Below are positions 8,383 to 15,473 of a DNA stretch of 64,000 nt, in pieces (the first letter of the stretch is position 1; each line of letters opens with the position of its first letter). Both the position numbers and the translations under genes were made by a program. The stretch is from assembly GCA_963790025.1 (NCBI GenBank), contig CAWBMP010000005.1, positions 512,001 through 576,000 on the forward strand, in the 5' to 3' direction. Below the pieces are notes generated by a model. That model was not told the DNA's origin and did no database searches. It saw only the letters and a program-made list of their open reading frames with translations. This DNA is from Nitrospirota bacterium. Lineage in GTDB: Bacteria; Nitrospirota; Thermodesulfovibrionia; Thermodesulfovibrionales; Dissulfurispiraceae.

Positions 8383-9300
8383 ATGTATCTTTACCTGCCA
8401 GTAGCTTTAACAAGTATCAATGTCCTGGTTCCTGTTGGACTTGGACTGGCCGTGGGACTGCTATCCGGACTCTTTGGCGTTGGGGGTGGCTTTCTCATGA
8501 CACCTCTTCTGATAATGTGCGGCATTCCATCGACAGTTGCAGCAGCAACTGATTCAAATCAGATTGTCGCGGCATCGACCTCGGGCACTTATGCTCATTG
8601 GAAGGTCGGCAATGTCGATTTCAAGATGGGACTTTACCTTTTGGCAGGCGGCTTTGCCGGGGGGCTTCTCGGCGTTGAAGGGATAAAGGTGTTAAGGGCC
8701 ATGGGCAACGCGGATTTTGTCATAAAGATGACATACGTGCTTATGCTCGGCTCAGTCGGCAGCTATATGTTATATGAAAGCCTTTCAAGCATGAGAAAGA
8801 AAAAAGTGCACGAGGCCGTAGAGGAGCGGGAATCGTCATTTGGCAGGTTTCTCAGGTCACTGCCCCTTCAAACATTTTTTGAAAAATCAGGGGTATCACA
8901 CTCGGTGCTTATACCCATTGTTTTCGGCGGCATTGTCGGAATACTTGCGGCAGTTATGGGTGTGGGCGGAGGCTTCCTGATGGTGCCGGTCATGGTGTAC
9001 ATCCTGAGGATGCCCATGCATGTCGTTGTAGGGACAAGCCTTTTCCAGATACTTTTCAATTGTATTGAAGTTACTTTTCTGCAGGCAACTACAAATCATA
9101 CGGTCGACTTTATCCTTGCCGTCCTTTTACTGATCGGTTCTACCGTGGGAGCACAGATTGGGGCGGTCTTTGGCAGGAAACTCAAGGCGGACCAGCTCAA
9201 GGTGATTTTGGCGGTAATAGTGCTCGTGGTTACAGTAAAAATAGTTTTTGAGCTTACGCTTAGCCCGTCGTTGTTCCTGGCTCAATCAGGCGGCCATTAA
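8383..9300 (+). CDS. TauE/SafE (TSUP) family permease
   Basis: GLFGVGGGFLMTP and MGVGGGFLMVP motifs, VVGTSLFQ. Confidence 0.92.
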   Translation: MYLYLPVALTSINVLVPVGLGLAVGLLSGLFGVGGGFLMTPLLIMCGIPSTVAAATDSNQIVAASTSGTYAHWKVGNVDFKMGLYLLAGGFAGGLLGVEGIKVLRAMGNADFVIKMTYVLMLGSVGSYMLYESLSSMRKKKVHEAVEERESSFGRFLRSLPLQTFFEKSGVSHSVLIPIVFGGIVGILAAVMGVGGGFLMVPVMVYILRMPMHVVVGTSLFQILFNCIEVTFLQATTNHTVDFILAVLLLIGSTVGAQIGAVFGRKLKADQLKVILAVIVLVVTVKIVFELTLSPSLFLAQSGGH

Positions 9301-9365: not shown

Positions 9366-9403
9366 AGATTAGGTATAGGCAAAGGTAAAGATAAGATAAA
9401 AAT

Positions 9404-9432
9404 AAAAAGGGGTCATTACTGACCCCTTTTTT
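9404..9432. terminator. bidirectional intrinsic terminator
   Basis: AAAAAGGGGTCA-TTAC-TGACCCCTTTTTT between convergent genes. Confidence 0.85.
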
Positions 9433-9439
9433 AAACTTT

Positions 9440-9457
9440 ATAGTGCACCTGCACTAT
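9440..9457 (-). promoter_or_regulatory. SECIS-like hairpin 2
   Basis: Perfect AUAGUGC-AGGU-GCACUAU; loop begins 21 nt after the second UGA; overlaps the UAG stop. Confidence 0.75.
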
Positions 9458-9732
9458 TTCTTGCTTCCGCTTCAACTGCCCTGTGAAGGTTTCTCTTCGG
9501 TCCCTTTTTGCATGTCCGGGTTTGTCGCTTCGTCTGTTTTTTTGTCTTTATCTTTGTCTTTATCCTGGTCCTTGTCTTTATCCTGATTCGGCTGTTGCCA
9601 TTGAGTGCCACCTGCACCCATACCACCGCTTCAGGCAGCCCATGCGTTTTCAGCGCCCGATAAGCCGGCCCCGGCGATCAGGGTGGCGATACCCAGACCG
9701 GCAAGAAGCCTTTGGAGATGCTCCCTTTGCAT
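9454..9732 (-). CDS. sbtA: selenocysteine-containing RiPP precursor, SbtA (selenobiotic) type, 92 aa with two UGA=Sec
   Basis: AGGAGG RBS; MQREHLQRLLAGLGIATLIAGAGLSGAENAWAA-U-SGGMGAGGTQWQQPNQDKDKDQDKDKDKDKKTDEATNPDMQKGTEEKPSQGS-U-SGSKK*; UGA at 9631-9633 and 9472-9474, each followed by a hairpin; radical SAM gene upstream on the same strand. Confidence 0.85.
9602..9620 (-). promoter_or_regulatory. SECIS-like hairpin 1
   Basis: UGGGUGC-AGGUG-GCACUCA; loop begins 17 nt after the first UGA. Confidence 0.75.
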
Positions 9733-9833
9733 TTTTTCCTCCTTTCTACTAATGATAACTGCCTAAGCTCCTGCAAGGCAGGGATGTCCACTGGATAGAA
9801 AAAAACAATGTCAAACTAAATAGTGATAGATAT

Positions 9834-9861
9834 ATTCTATCATAGATAGCTATACTGTCAA
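9834..9861 (-). promoter_or_regulatory. sigma70-type promoter for the precursor gene
   Basis: TTGACA-16 nt-TAGAAT on the minus strand. Confidence 0.55.
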
Positions 9862-9916: not shown

Positions 9917-11536
9917 TCAGACACTGAACTGGTCCACGATATCCTTCAGATGGCCGGACAGCCGGGCCAGTTCGGACGAGGACTGCGCAATCTGATCGGA
10001 CCCGCCGGAAACCTCTTTTGCACCTCCTGCAACAGCCTGAATGTCCCCGCTGATTGCTTCAGAGGTTGTAGACATTTCCTCTGTCGCGGTTGCGATCTGT
10101 TGCACCATGTTTTGAAGAGATGTTACGCTCTGTACGATGGCCTTAAGCTGCTCTCCAGCCTCGATCGAGTACTGAAGTCCTGTATTCACCTTTTCGTTCG
10201 TGAGATTCATTGCAGCAACGGCGCTGTCAACTTCGCTTTGAATAGCTCCGATCATCTGACTGATTTCAGAAGTGGCTTTTGCGGTCCGTTCAGCGAGTTT
10301 CCGCACCTCGTCGGCAACAACAGAAAACCCGCGACCTTGTTCTCCTGCGCGTGCGGCTTCAATTGCAGCGTTCAGTGCAAGCAGATTTGTCTGATCAGCA
10401 ATATCGTTGATAACAGCCACAATTTCGCCGATCTGTTTAGACTTTTCGCCTAGCGATTGCATGACGCGGGTCGATGTGTTGACTGTTTCAGCTATGCTCC
10501 TTGATTCGGCTACAGATTTGGCGACTACTTCCGCCCCTGTTCTGGCGATGTCTGCGGTTTCCGATGAAGATTGAGCAATGCTTGAAGCGTTTCTTGCAAT
10601 GTCGATGACTGTTTGGGACATTTCTTCGGCGGAAGTTGCGATCTGTGATGAGCGGTTTGATTGATCGGACATTGTCCTGGTAATCTCTTCGGAACTCGCG
10701 CTCAAGTGTTCGCTGCCGGAGGCGACGCTTGCAGACGCCCGCTTGATATCTCTGATCACGCCTTTGAGTTTGACGACCATTGCTTTCATTGCATCGAGCA
10801 ATTGTCCGGTTTCGTTTTTGCCTGTGGCTTCGATCTCAACCGTGAGGTCGCCGGACGCTATTTTGGCGGTTGTCTCGACCGCGTCGAGCAGCGGCCCGGT
10901 GATGCTTCTGATTATCCACAGGGTCACGAAGATTGCAATCGCCAACGCCGATGCACTCAGGATGATAATTGATATCCTGACAGTCTTCGCCTTGCTGCTG
11001 GCTGCATCTGCGTGCAATTTCGCCTGTTCCTTGATAAAAATATCCATGTCATCTACTGACTTAAGGTACGCGGCCTGTAATGCCTCGAATTCAGACAGCA
11101 GTCGGACAGCTTCATTTCTATTGCCGTCCATGAGGGATTTGACGATTTGATCTCTCATGTCGGCAGACGGCTTTCTCCTGTCGAGCATTGACTGATACAG
11201 GGCCTTCCCTTTTTCAGATTGCACGAGGGCTTTGAGTTTGTCAAAATTATCGCTGATACTTTTTCTTGAGCCCAGCATGTGCTCTATTTCTTTTTCCAGG
11301 CTTTCTTTGTTTTCGGCCATAAAGGCTTTTTCAAGATGAGTGGTCGCCGTGAGAATGTTCGCGGTGAGGTCCCCCAGAATAAGAGCCTGAGGCAGACGTT
11401 TATCACCCATTTCCCGGATATTGCCGCTCAGAGACGAAATTGACAGATATGCGGTAAGAGAAATTGAGATGACCAGCACAATCACAATTCCAAAGCCGAT
11501 AAATAACTTTGTCTTGATTTTCAGGTCCTTTGTCAC
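9917..11536 (-). CDS. methyl-accepting chemotaxis protein (four-helix-bundle sensor, HAMP, MCP signal)
   Basis: Two [28 protein letters not shown]. Confidence 0.95.
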
Positions 11537-11557: not shown

Positions 11558-13153
11558 TTATTTATTACTATCCATAATGGTGAAAAAGCAATAAGGGTCT
11601 TTCTCCTTGAAGATATCCAGGCCGCGGCTGTATGCTGCAGCGAGGCAACCGCCGCAGCCTGGACGAATAGGGCAGGCTGAGCATGCACCGCAGCCGGCAC
11701 GGTATCGTTGTGCCTTCACCGAGTCATAGATTTCGGCAAGACCTTGTTCGTTTATGTTCCCGATGAAGGAAGGAAATTTTCGGCAGGCATGCACCTCGCC
11801 GTCGGGAAGAAGGGCAAGGAAATTGAACGCCGCGCCGCATCCGAAGCCGGTGCAGCCTCCAAACGGCGCAAGCCCTTCCTGCCGGCGGATAATATTGATG
11901 AGATTATCCTTGATCCCGAGGACCGGGTTTACCTCTGCGGTTTTTATATAGGATTCGAGGAAGCGAATATATTGGTCCCTTCCCGGCAGTTTAAGCTGCG
12001 CCCCTTCTCCAACCATGGAGAGACGGTTGAAATTGAAAGTGTCGGCGAGACCGTGAAGGAATTCACCGAGGGGCAGTATCTGTTCGATATTGTCTTGTGT
12101 GAGCGTGAGCATTACCATAGAATAGACACCGAGTTCCCTGAGCAGTTCAAGAAAATTGACGGTCCGCTCGAAATGGCCCGGGCCGCGGATCGAATCATTA
12201 TGCTTCTGCAGGCCCTCAAGACTGACCTGGAAAAAATCGGGACGCTGGATCGAGACAATTTCTCCGATAAGCTGTCGCGGTGAAGGGTTACCCAGGATAG
12301 ATAGGATGAAGCCCTTATCAGCCGCGCCGCGGTAAAGTTCGAGGAAATGAGGATATAACAGGGGGTTGCCACCGGAAAAGGAGATCCGTCCCTTCACGTG
12401 CCTGTTACGGCAGAAATCATGGAAGTCATCGAGAATGTCCAATGCTTTCCTGAAGTTGACAGTCGAACGGCTGGTGCGGTCGTAGCAGTGCTTGCAATGG
12501 AGGTCGCATGCCTGGGTAATATGCCATTGCAATGTGAACGAGGTTGTGACACGGAATGAGTCATCGAAAGGTCCTGCAGCCGAAAAAATTCCGGGGTCAC
12601 GTTTCAGAAGTGAAGGAGGTGAAAGCAGGATGCCGCGCTTTATTGCACGATCAACAGCGGCGTCAACTGCTGAAACAGCAATCTTCCCTTCAGCAGCCAC
12701 CTTATTAGACGGCATCCCCTCGACTGCCATCTTGAGGACGAGCAAGTCCTCATCCGTGGCCGGCCTGCATTTGACCTCGCCGCTAACAGGGCTTTTCCAG
12801 ACGAGCAACATCTCCGCACCGCGAAGGGGCACTTCTCCGGACGTTTCGCGATTGTCGGCGATAAAGGTGAACAGGTTTTTCCACCTGAGAGGGAGCACCT
12901 CAAGGGCGGGGTTCACATCGAGCGTGTCAGTACCCGATGGTATTTCGGCAGCATTAATCCTGGCCATAGCCAATTCAAGTCGCACCAGATCAGAAATAAA
13001 AGGAGGCAAACCATGAGTGTCTGCACAGAGGGTGAGAACATCGGGAATCATATCGGCTGCAGGCGCGGGGCTGCGTGAGGAGATGATCCTATCCCACGAT
13101 TCCCTGCCAATAAGAGAGATACAAGCGCTGTAAATATCTTCGAGCCTCATCAT
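11558..13153 (-). CDS. sbtM: radical SAM/SPASM peptide maturase, SbtM type
   Basis: About 200-aa N-terminal extension, FTLQWHITQACDLHCKHCYDR (CxxxCxxC), SPASM cysteines GGCTGFGCG..HACRKF..CSACPIRPGCGGC..DPYCF; start chosen at MMRLED. Confidence 0.85.
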   Translation of the reverse strand: MMRLEDIYSACISLIGRESWDRIISSRSPAPAADMIPDVLTLCADTHGLPPFISDLVRLELAMARINAAEIPSGTDTLDVNPALEVLPLRWKNLFTFIADNRETSGEVPLRGAEMLLVWKSPVSGEVKCRPATDEDLLVLKMAVEGMPSNKVAAEGKIAVSAVDAAVDRAIKRGILLSPPSLLKRDPGIFSAAGPFDDSFRVTTSFTLQWHITQACDLHCKHCYDRTSRSTVNFRKALDILDDFHDFCRNRHVKGRISFSGGNPLLYPHFLELYRGAADKGFILSILGNPSPRQLIGEIVSIQRPDFFQVSLEGLQKHNDSIRGPGHFERTVNFLELLRELGVYSMVMLTLTQDNIEQILPLGEFLHGLADTFNFNRLSMVGEGAQLKLPGRDQYIRFLESYIKTAEVNPVLGIKDNLINIIRRQEGLAPFGGCTGFGCGAAFNFLALLPDGEVHACRKFPSFIGNINEQGLAEIYDSVKAQRYRAGCGACSACPIRPGCGGCLAAAYSRGLDIFKEKDPYCFFTIMDSNK

Positions 13154-13422
13154 ATCGGTCACATAGCTGCCCACTGTTGATATAATAATATAATAATAGA
13201 ACCTTTGAGTGTCCCAGTGCAAACACAAAGACAGGTAAAGGTAACTTCTGTTTTTACCTCTACTGTTACCTTTACCTGTTTTTTTGGTGTTATAGCGTAA
13301 GTGGCGATTAGATGTGTTATAATCGAACAAAACTTATGGATGAATTTTTGTCTTTTTGTTAAACTTATCGAATCAGTCAGGTAGATTCTTTCACGCTTTA
13401 ATTATGACTTTGGAGGCGAGTA

Positions 13423-13720: not shown

Positions 13721-14557
13721 ATGGAAATTCGGGACTTGAGAAGTCAGATTGAAAAGATCGATGCGCTTCCTACAATACCCAGCATATTGAGAAAGCTGCT
13801 GGCTGTTATCGAGAGGCCCAAGATTTCAATTAGCGAGATTGGCAGTTTCATTGCCAATGATCCTGTGCTCACGTCGAGGGTGCTCAAAGTCGTCAACTCG
13901 CCGATTTACGGCTTTCCGGGCAGAATATCCTCTCTGAATCAGGCTTTGATATTGCTCGGCCTCAATGTGGTGAGAGGGATGCTGCTCGGCGTTTCCGTTT
14001 TCGAGGCAATGGAAAAGACCATGTCAGGTCTATGGGAGCATTCACTCGGCTGTGCCATTGCCTCGCGTATTGTCGCAAAGAGAATGGGAGTTAAAGAGCC
14101 GGAGGAAGTTTCTGTTGCCGCTTTGCTGCATGATATCGGAAAAGTGGTACTGGGTCTTAAATTTCCCGAGGAATACCGTCAGGTGATGGGCAGTGCCGAA
14201 ACGGAAGGGATCTTTATCTTCGAGGCCGAGAAGAGATCTTTTAATATTAACCATGCCGATGCAGGCGGATGGATCTCCCTTAAGTGGAACTTTCCCAGCA
14301 ACCTTGTTGAGCCGATTGAATATCACCACAAGCCTCACCTTGCCAAAATAGTCCCCCTTCAGACGGCAATAGTCCATTTTGCGGATGTGTTAACGCGAGC
14401 CAAGGGGTTCGGTTTTGCCGGCGATCACTTTGTCCCTGCAGTGCATCCGGCGGCATGGAAGTTGCTCAACCTTTCCGAGGATGACTTGAAGGAAATAATA
14501 TCGGAACTGGAAGATTCATTAGACGAGGCCGGTGGCTTCCTGCTTTCCGATGAGTAA
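13721..14557 (+). CDS. HDOD domain protein
   Basis: LPTIP, DPVLTSRVLKVVNSP, WEHS, LLHDIGK, HHKP. Confidence 0.92.
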   Translation: MEIRDLRSQIEKIDALPTIPSILRKLLAVIERPKISISEIGSFIANDPVLTSRVLKVVNSPIYGFPGRISSLNQALILLGLNVVRGMLLGVSVFEAMEKTMSGLWEHSLGCAIASRIVAKRMGVKEPEEVSVAALLHDIGKVVLGLKFPEEYRQVMGSAETEGIFIFEAEKRSFNINHADAGGWISLKWNFPSNLVEPIEYHHKPHLAKIVPLQTAIVHFADVLTRAKGFGFAGDHFVPAVHPAAWKLLNLSEDDLKEIISELEDSLDEAGGFLLSDE

Positions 14558-15473
14558 TACCAAGACTGTTGTTGTTATCTCCAAAGACCCGGTACTAACC
14601 GGCATAATCGGCAAGTTCCTTGAAGGGTCCTACCAGGTCATCGAATTCGCCGCCCTCCCATCTTCACTGGATTATATATATAGTTCGATTCCCGATGTAT
14701 TGCTGCTGGACATAACATCCGATGATCCGGTTATGGTTACGACGCTTAATGATTTAAAAAGTGATCCTATTCTGGGCAGCCTGTCCATATTTGCAATTTT
14801 CGGAGATGCCTTTGCCGTTCCACATTGGGATTATCTGCTTGTCGATGATTACATTAAGCGATCATTGCTGGAAGATGAATTACTGTCACGGGTTGAATTG
14901 TGCATACAGAGGGCGGAGCGGACGATCGAAGTAAATCCGCTGACACGGTTACCCGGAAATATTCAAATCACAAAACAGATACAAAAGCGGTTGGATGCCG
15001 GTGAGCAATTTGCACTCGCTTATGCCGACCTCGATCACTTTAAACCATACAACGACCGCTACGGATTCAGCCGGGGCGATGAAGTCCTGAAGATGCTCGG
15101 CAGGCTTATACTCAATACTGTTAAAGAGAGACATCCTTACGGCAGTTTTGTCGGGCATATCGGTGGAGATGATTTTGTATTCATGATGGATTGCGATGCC
15201 GCTGCTGAGACTTCAGAAAAGATTATCGGTTATTTCGACGAGATCATCCCCACTTTTCACGACATGGACGACAGGACAAAGGGACACATAGAATCCACGG
15301 ACAGGGAGGGAAAAAAAAGGGTATTCCCTCTCATAAGCCTGTCAATCGGCATTGCGCATAATAGGATGAGAAAGTTTACCCACTATGGGGCGATGGCCGA
15401 AGTCGCATCTGAAGTGAAAAAATTTGCCAAGACAGTTGTCGGCAGCTGCGTAAAGAGCGATCAAAGACATTAA
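14550..15473 (+). CDS. diguanylate cyclase-like protein with degenerate receiver domain
   Basis: NPLTRLPGN, DLDHFKPYND.YG...GD, HIGGDDF. Confidence 0.88.
   Translation: MSNTKTVVVISKDPVLTGIIGKFLEGSYQVIEFAALPSSLDYIYSSIPDVLLLDITSDDPVMVTTLNDLKSDPILGSLSIFAIFGDAFAVPHWDYLLVDDYIKRSLLEDELLSRVELCIQRAERTIEVNPLTRLPGNIQITKQIQKRLDAGEQFALAYADLDHFKPYNDRYGFSRGDEVLKMLGRLILNTVKERHPYGSFVGHIGGDDFVFMMDCDAAAETSEKIIGYFDEIIPTFHDMDDRTKGHIESTDREGKKRVFPLISLSIGIAHNRMRKFTHYGAMAEVASEVKKFAKTVVGSCVKSDQRH

Follow-up and report, generated by a model that had tools for sequence, protein, structure and literature searches.

We identified on a Nitrospirota contig a 92-codon gene that is very probably a genuine sbtA: it would encode a ribosomally made precursor of the SbtA/SbtM thio(seleno)oxazole system that contains two selenocysteines (U in peptide sequences), each directed by a SECIS hairpin, and that is modified by SbtM and bears a leader with an export function. 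The gene is identified by its reading frame, by membership of its product in the SbtA family, by the selenocysteine machinery of the genome, by covarying hairpins downstream of its UGA codons and by the architecture of homologous peptides. Positions refer to the window, the whole 64,000-nucleotide stretch of DNA that was analyzed. A first-pass annotation, made from the sequence, had proposed that the gene encodes the precursor of a selenium-containing natural product, and the match to TIGR04081, the presence of SbtM, the selenocysteine machinery, the hairpins and the homologs support this proposal.

When the minus strand was translated with TGA read through, the frame ran from an ATG at 9732-9730 to a TAG at 9456-9454, and the sole in-frame stops inside it were the TGAs at 9633-9631 (codon 34) and 9474-9472 (codon 87), both of which are surrounded by TGAAGCGG (Table 1). 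The first-pass annotation had described a strong ribosome-binding site and an ATG opening a 92-codon frame broken only by two UGAs, both in the context [A/S]-UGA-S-G. We recovered the same features (AGGAGG; TGAs at codons 34 and 87; contexts A-A-U-S-G and G-S-U-S-G) at the same coordinates, with the difference that no strand had been named: the frame is on the minus strand, and the plus-strand reading of 9454-9732 gives a meaningless translation. Because it has its own ribosome-binding site, promoter and terminator, sbtA looks like an independent, monocistronic and well-signalled transcription unit. By eye, a possible operator can be made out at about 9843-9833 on the minus strand, a palindrome (TCTAT-G-ATAGA) that shares nucleotides with the -10 hexamer.

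Table 1. Features of the sbtA locus and its flanking genes (window coordinates).
Feature	Position	Strand	Basis
TauE/SafE-family transporter gene, converging on sbtA	8383..9300	+	Pfam
Intrinsic terminator, 12-bp stem then T-run	9404..9431	-	sequence scan
SECIS-like hairpin 2, AUAGUGC / loop AGGU / GCACUAU, 14 nt after UGA87	9440..9457	-	RNA fold
sbtA coding sequence, 92 codons + TAG stop, predicted Sec at codons 34 and 87	9454..9732	-	translation, TIGR04081, homolog in locus L036
Second in-frame TGA, predicted Sec87, context G-S-U-S-G-S-K-K-stop	9472..9474	-	translation; aligned Cys in L082
SECIS-like hairpin 1, UGGGUGC / loop AGGUG / GCACUCA, 10 nt after UGA34	9602..9620	-	RNA fold
First in-frame TGA, predicted Sec34, context A-A-U-S-G	9631..9633	-	translation; L036 with the same A-W-A-A-U-S-G
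SbtA conserved N-terminal region, residues 1-33	9634..9732	-	TIGR04081 match over residues 1-25
Ribosome-binding site AGGAGG, ATG 5 nt further on	9738..9743	-	sequence reading
Sigma-70-type promoter TTGACA-16-TAGAAT, TG extension, 11/12 matches	9834..9861	-	consensus match only
Methyl-accepting chemotaxis protein gene, between sbtM and sbtA	9917..11536	-	MCPsignal, HAMP and 4HB_MCP_1 Pfam domains
sbtM, radical SAM/SPASM maturase, longest ORF	11558..13330	-	TIGR04082, Pfam, CDLHCKHC motif

The read-through peptide scored 31.2 bits (E 1.3e-7) against the NCBIfam SbtA model TIGR04081, and a six-frame scan of the genome with this model scored sbtA at 33.2 bits. The likeness of the leader to SbtA that the first-pass annotation had noted is thereby borne out at the equivalog cut-off of 30.5 bits. 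The margin is narrow (0.7 bits), and the match spans residues 1-25 of the peptide in a model of 27 positions; this small margin and the modelling of the first 25 residues only count against our assignment. Pfam gave the peptide no family at a limit of E <= 0.01, and relaxing this to E <= 10 brought up no credible match.

To place the peptide in its family, we compared loci that encode SbtM on one-genome-per-species contigs, taking the best 80 of 180, and sought SbtA-like frames by searching the sbtA peptide against all TGA-read-through frames of these 80 loci. Such frames were present in 70 of the 80. We kept 72 homolog peptides, a set that leaves out sbtA itself and a paralog from the same genome; a run of N led us to discard one peptide, and one hit lacked a start codon. 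A TGA was counted as Sec if it had a small-residue context or a hairpin, and the first TGA that failed was taken as the stop. Under this rule, six peptides had no Sec, eight had one, 20 had two, 25 had three, 12 had four and one had five, giving at least two Sec codons in 58 of 72; these counts are heuristic, because a cruder trimming rule gave lower figures. The last U fell within 8 residues of a TAA or TAG end in 46 of the 72 peptides.

The nearest relative in the set, from locus L036, has an SbtM 63% identical to the one in our genome and a 91-residue SbtA peptide that is 51% identical to sbtA over its full length, across both UGAs, and shares its architecture (...A-W-A-A-U-S-G ... S-G-U-S-G-P-K-K-stop). 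Conservation of this kind beyond the first UGA, which the first-pass annotation had singled out as a check together with Cys-aligned homologs, indicates that the open frame is more than chance. Cys replaced Sec in the same motif in 16 occurrences; in L082, for example, Cys aligns to U87 and is followed by T-G-T-K-K. Four peptides (L037, L038, L040 and L055) have only Cys, in T-S-C-S-G or T-S-C-G-G repeats, and no in-frame TGA; their sequences suggest variants of the system that use sulfur alone. The titles of the SbtM contigs name Nitrospirota/Thermodesulfovibrionales, Brocadiia/Planctomycetota, Chloroflexota, Leptospiraceae and Gammaproteobacteria among metagenome-assembled genomes (MAGs), labels that may be wrong. 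Taken at face value, with binning that is perhaps unreliable, these labels spread SbtM more widely than the "Geobacter and Desulfobacteria" of the available text of PMC9204691.

Each predicted Sec of sbtA is followed by a hairpin and lies in a small-residue motif (AAUSG and GSUSG), as expected for an SbtA core. The Sec contexts tallied across the family fit [S/G/A/T][S/G/A]-U-[S/G/T]-G, with SGUSG (25), SGUGG (20) and SSUSG (17) among them. PMC9204691 describes the SeCys of SbtA as lying generally in GGUG, and reports that SbtA and SbtM seem to be confined to Geobacter and Desulfobacteria. Neither sbtA site is GGUG, and because strict GGUG was absent from all the Sec contexts tallied in SbtM-locus peptides, we treat this motif as typical of the studied strains rather than as family-defining. 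The residue before Sec in sbtA is Ala or Ser and not Gly, whereas modification by SbtM has been shown on Gly-Cys/SeCys units, according to PMC9204691.

The first 33 residues of sbtA consist of a basic n-region, a hydrophobic stretch (LLAGLGIATLIAGAGL) and an A-W-A directly before A-U, and this region looks like an export signal peptide. An L-K-K-x-L-A-G-like motif was present in 68 of the 72 family peptides, a degree of N-terminal conservation that well exceeds the need of a generic signal peptide. At the equivalent N-terminal place, 38 of 72 peptides carry a strict lipobox pattern with its Cys, and several more have a Cys there after a less canonical triplet; in the sbtA and L036 peptides the region ends in A-W-A, and sbtA has no lipobox Cys. 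Because the motif is conserved, the region has the form of a signal peptide and homologs carry the lipobox Cys, we propose that it probably acts at once as the recognition leader for SbtM and as an export signal.

The genome encodes the machinery for selenocysteine insertion, for which the first-pass annotation had suggested a check: selA (609 bits), selB (355 bits), selD (320 bits, with an in-frame TGA of its own) and tRNA-Sec (68 bits) all scored above their cut-offs. By this gene content, the organism is able to read UGA as Sec. The selD gene (G000 contig C4 824216-825151, minus strand) also encodes a selenoprotein, with the Sec context A-A-G-U-A-A-K, and its UGA is followed 12 nt downstream by a hairpin, GGUCC-GGC-GGACC, of the same type as those of sbtA. 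Hairpin 1 of sbtA is coded by the codons of M-G-A-G-G-T-Q. Hairpin 2 has the TAG stop (9456-9454) within its 5' arm and an untranslated 3' arm, and the two hairpins have a common top, GUGC-AGGU-GCAC. An Rfam scan of 9380-9780 at E <= 10 found no SECIS family and returned only sub-threshold sRNA models on the terminator.

We measured how often such hairpins follow UGA across the family, using 171 UGA sites (166 of them unique) chosen by context, with two small residues before the UGA, a position of at least 20 and 63 nt of clean sequence. A hairpin, defined as a stem of at least 5 bp with a loop of 3-7 nt containing GT or GG and a start 9-24 nt from U, was present at 146 of the 166 unique sites; the control rates were 5.6% in mononucleotide shuffles (187 of 3320) and 10.8% at positions within sbtM (237 of 2203). 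Start offsets peaked at 14 and 17 counted from U. In an RNAalifold alignment of terminal sites (A1, n = 49), a 6-pair helix had changes on both sides in 5 pairs; 97.2% of its cells were paired, against a mean of 82.1% in shuffles, none of 500 shuffles reached the observed value, and at most 46.6% of cells paired when the partners were slid by 1-3 columns. In the alignment of internal sites (A2, n = 115), all 5 predicted pairs had compensatory changes, with the stem variants GUGC/GCAC, GCGC/GCGC, GUAC/GUAC, GAGC/GCUC and ACGC/GCGU. The elements in sbtA are thus of the SECIS type, being a short distance 3' of the UGA and covarying. Because the internal hairpins are built from the codons of the conserved G-A-G-[S/G]-T motif, we suspect that this peptide motif is at least partly an RNA footprint of the hairpin. 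Twenty of the 166 sites had no hairpin of their own (L046, L050, L057, L058, L063, L071 and others, e.g. in the U-S-G-T-K-A-x-P class); perhaps an element farther away serves these UGAs, or they may not be decoded as Sec at all.

The terminal alignment bears on the possibility that Sec is inserted at UGA34 and that UGA87 is the real stop, in which case the peptide would end ...S-Q-G-S and the hairpin at 9457-9440 would have another role, e.g. in RNA stability. Just 5 codons follow UGA87, and several homologs seem to stop at a TGA just past the Sec motif (...SGUS then TGA). We consider this arrangement improbable for sbtA, as the U-S-G-x-K-K-stop tail is conserved, with the last U close to a TAA or TAG in the 46 peptides counted above; L082 continues past a Cys at the U87 position into T-G-T-K-K; the stop-containing terminal hairpin covaries across 49 sequences and in sbtA has the same top as hairpin 1; and a separate terminator lies downstream. 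The homologs in question (L056, L073, L094, L097 and L101) seem to end ...S-G-U-S followed by TGA as a true stop, with a hairpin after it, which would place a Sec-UGA and a stop-UGA two codons apart in one message.

The maturase gene of the system is the ORF at 11558-13330, the only SbtM copy found in a scan of the genome. Its product scored 716.4 bits against TIGR04082 (cut-off 350), with residues 66-582 matched, and contains Radical_SAM (PF04055) and SPASM (PF13186) domains and the CxxxCxxC motif CDLHCKHC; by family score, radical SAM motif and SPASM domain it belongs to SbtM. The first-pass annotation had placed an SbtM-like radical SAM gene 1.8 kb upstream on the same strand, correctly: the end of sbtM at 11558 is 1826 nt upstream of the sbtA ATG on that strand. 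Our sbtA thus lies in an SbtM neighbourhood, yet the two genes are not adjacent. The longest sbtM ORF opens with TTG at 13330 and has two ATGs at residues 60-61. Because of these ATGs, and because the family model begins at residue 66, translation probably begins at the ATG at 13153 (residue 60), which would leave the first 59 codons (13153-13330) untranslated.

Between sbtM and sbtA lies a gene for a methyl-accepting chemotaxis protein, whose cluster did not recur among the SbtM loci compared; the gene is probably outside the SbtA/SbtM system. Genes for an HDOD/HD-domain protein and a response-regulator-GGDEF protein diverge upstream of sbtM (13721-15473, plus strand), and neither recurs in the other SbtM loci compared. 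Together with the chemotaxis gene they set the sbtM/sbtA cassette among signalling genes. Across 81 SbtM loci we found no conserved third gene: the biggest cluster, a universal stress protein, occurred in 16, and other clusters (histidine kinase etc.) in at most 10, antisense shadow ORFs inside sbtM excepted. Because no third gene is conserved, SbtA/SbtM looks like a two-gene cassette. Gene order varies within it: sbtA is downstream of sbtM, and a rough classification of the 72 homologs placed 57 upstream of sbtM on the same strand, 10 downstream, 4 on the opposite strand and 1 ambiguously.

This placement has to be weighed in asking whether sbtA instead encodes an exported small selenoprotein with two Sec residues that SbtM leaves unmodified, e.g. 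a redox or selenium-carrier peptide, the link to SbtM being only historical here. The 1.8-kb gap with its unrelated gene, the independent promoter, an unlinked paralog far from any sbtM and the lack of Gly before Sec are in keeping with such a peptide. These points are outweighed by an intact, high-scoring SbtM that has kept all its cluster motifs, by an N-terminal motif in 68 of 72 peptides that is far more conserved than export alone requires, by the co-occurrence of SbtA-like frames with SbtM in 70 of 80 loci, and by the finding that Sec in this family is normally preceded by S, G or A; we therefore give the unmodified selenoprotein little credence.

The paralog, a second SbtA-like gene, is located in the same genome outside the 64-kb window (L022:1501-1701, plus strand; G000 contig C2 about 241858-242058). 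It scored 29.2 bits against TIGR04081, just below the cut-off, and has two in-frame TGAs with a hairpin after each, a canonical lipobox (L-S-G-C) and, like sbtA, the tail U-S-G-S-K-K-stop, here as G-U-S-G-S-K-K-stop. It is far from any sbtM. Its neighbours (a short-chain dehydrogenase, two ORFs without family, DAHP synthase and a periplasmic binding protein) offered no metal or selenium clues.

Genes of this kind are easily lost to annotation, as the first-pass annotation had anticipated in suggesting that standard callers would truncate sbtA at 33 aa or miss it. Table-11 ORF calling yielded only a 33-aa ORF at 9631-9732. By exact look-up in a collection of about 15 billion proteins, the SbtM of the genome was present, and neither the 33-aa form nor a Cys-substituted full-length form of sbtA was found, in a look-up that is blind to U-bearing records. 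A homolog search over the 50-161 aa range found one protein (P0003) among 326 candidates; its N-terminus is over-extended and its call ends ...E-N-A-W-A-A, exactly before the UGA. That sbtA might truly be a 33-codon micro-ORF ending at the first UGA, the downstream open frame being chance or relic, agrees with this ORF call, with the same treatment of its sole database relative and with a TIGR04081 model that covers the N-terminal region only, but is scarcely credible given the 51% identity of L036 to the C-terminus, the hairpin 10 nt after UGA34 with its covariation across 115 sites, the Cys residues at equivalent positions in homologs, the full Sec machinery in the genome and a terminator placed after the TAG, not after the first UGA.

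For the two-Sec precursor that we favor, we infer the following course. Sec would be inserted at UGA34 and UGA87, each under the direction of a SelB-type SECIS hairpin 10-14 nt downstream, with the hairpin for UGA87 straddling the TAG stop codon. SbtM, judged by the homologous enzyme that has been studied, would act in the cytoplasm and convert the small-residue-Sec unit at each of the two sites into a 5-selenooxazole, with the loss of 4 H per site. The N-terminal 33 residues would be recognized by SbtM as a leader and would also function as a Sec-pathway signal peptide, and the product of cleavage after A-W-A would then be a hydrophilic peptide, ~60 residues long, that has a selenooxazole close to either end. 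As its function, we prefer the chelation of soft metals in the cell envelope, on the analogy of the thiooxazole bufferins; features of the peptide sequence suggest export, and the same analogy points to metal binding.

For the family as a whole, we put forward more tentatively, and at somewhat less than even confidence, that SbtA precursors give envelope-targeted poly-selenooxazole peptides and not classical leader-cleaved antibiotics, that their conserved "leader" is a Sec or lipoprotein signal, and that they are the anaerobic, radical-SAM, selenium counterpart of O2-dependent thiooxazole metallophores (bufferins, oxazolins and RiPP-lipoproteins). If so, this genome would make a soluble form (sbtA, cut after A-W-A) and a lipid-anchored form (the paralog, with L-S-G-C), and the peptides would show the conserved G-A-G-[S/G]-T repeat behind each Sec as a footprint of the SECIS hairpin and not as a functional motif.

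With sbtA, the family gains a two-Sec member whose boundaries are correctly set, where gene calls routinely cut such precursors short or overlook them. In the comparative set, two to five Sec per precursor are the norm, the last SECIS crosses the stop codon, and most precursors appear to carry an export or lipoprotein signal. The outcome is a set of concrete annotation rules for SbtA genes and a testable idea about the role of these selenium peptides. The main value of sbtA lies in this annotation and in the export and metallophore hypotheses, the family itself being already curated and published.

The primary papers on the SbtA/SbtM system are said to be those of Haft and Basu (2011) and Lewis et al. 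(2021). In the literature searched, we found no paper naming SbtA together with SbtM, and the combination of selenocysteine, RiPP, signal peptide, radical SAM and lipoprotein appeared only in unrelated work. Two papers compare spectra of SbtM products with those of MNIO (multinuclear iron oxidase) thiooxazoles and are silent on SbtA export or function. The available text of PMC9204691, a 2022 perspective, reports that Haft predicted a Se-containing precursor adjoining sbtM and that newer annotations make this precursor longer than first thought, with probably at least two SeCys; it calls the biological function and final product of the system not known. As described there and in the available text of PMC11002830, SbtM takes 4 H from a Gly-Cys/SeCys unit to form a thio(seleno)oxazole. 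The SbtA family, its thio/selenooxazole chemistry and its architecture with at least two SeCys are already in print, and sbtA is not a new kind of gene, since NCBIfam curates the family and PMC9204691, in the text available, states the multi-SeCys architecture. The points that we add are the export-like leader, the hairpin coded by G-A-G-[S/G]-T and the unlinked lipobox paralog, some of which the primary papers may already hold.

Like the described SbtA/SbtM system, the locus pairs a precursor above the SbtA cut-off with a maturase that scores as SbtM and has the CxxxCxxC motif and SPASM domain, and SECIS hairpins lie downstream of its in-frame UGAs; the available text of PMC9204691 already notes more than one Sec for a single precursor. 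The locus differs in its Sec contexts (A-A-U-S-G and G-S-U-S-G versus the GGUG reported in that text), in the position of sbtA, which lies downstream of sbtM, is separated from it by a chemotaxis receptor gene and has its own promoter, and in having an A-W-A signal-peptidase-I-like site instead of a lipobox. The nearest relatives of its SbtM are in MAGs labelled Nitrospiraceae, versus the Geobacter or Desulfobacteria reported there.

The bufferins (BufA/BufB/BufC), whose precursors bear Sec signal peptides, contain 5-thiooxazoles and act in the periplasm by sequestering copper (bioRxiv 10.1101/2024.03.18.585515). Like them, sbtA would encode a ribosomal peptide that has its Cys (Sec in this case) converted to a 5-thio(seleno)oxazole and that, by its sequence features, probably has an N-terminal Sec-type signal. 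Bufferins are made by an O2-dependent MNIO with a DUF2063 partner, whereas SbtM is an anaerobic radical SAM/SPASM enzyme, and they are folded small proteins with sulfur, whereas SbtA is a low-complexity charged peptide with selenium. We considered sbtA as a bufferin and rejected that assignment: in place of an MNIO (DUF692) and DUF2063 pair there is a radical SAM/SPASM maturase with no conserved third gene, and the relation is one of analogy only. In the MNIO RiPP-lipoproteins and oxazolin-type peptides, repeated EGKCG motifs each lose 4 Da (PMC13056109, PMC12538549). These peptides resemble SbtA in presenting short repeated Cys motifs on a peptide bearing a lipobox or signal peptide; in most SbtA homologs and in the paralog, repeated [S/G]-U-[S/G]-G motifs likewise come after a lipobox. 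They differ in belonging to another maturase family and in containing no selenium, and the sbtA peptide, for its part, has no lipobox Cys. The E. coli fdhF-type SECIS is a stem-loop with G/U in its apical loop that starts about 11-14 nt after the UGA. The sbtA-family hairpins are alike in their spacing, with offsets that peak at 14 and 17 from U, but differ from it in that the last element of each SbtA gene crosses the stop codon into the 3' untranslated region.
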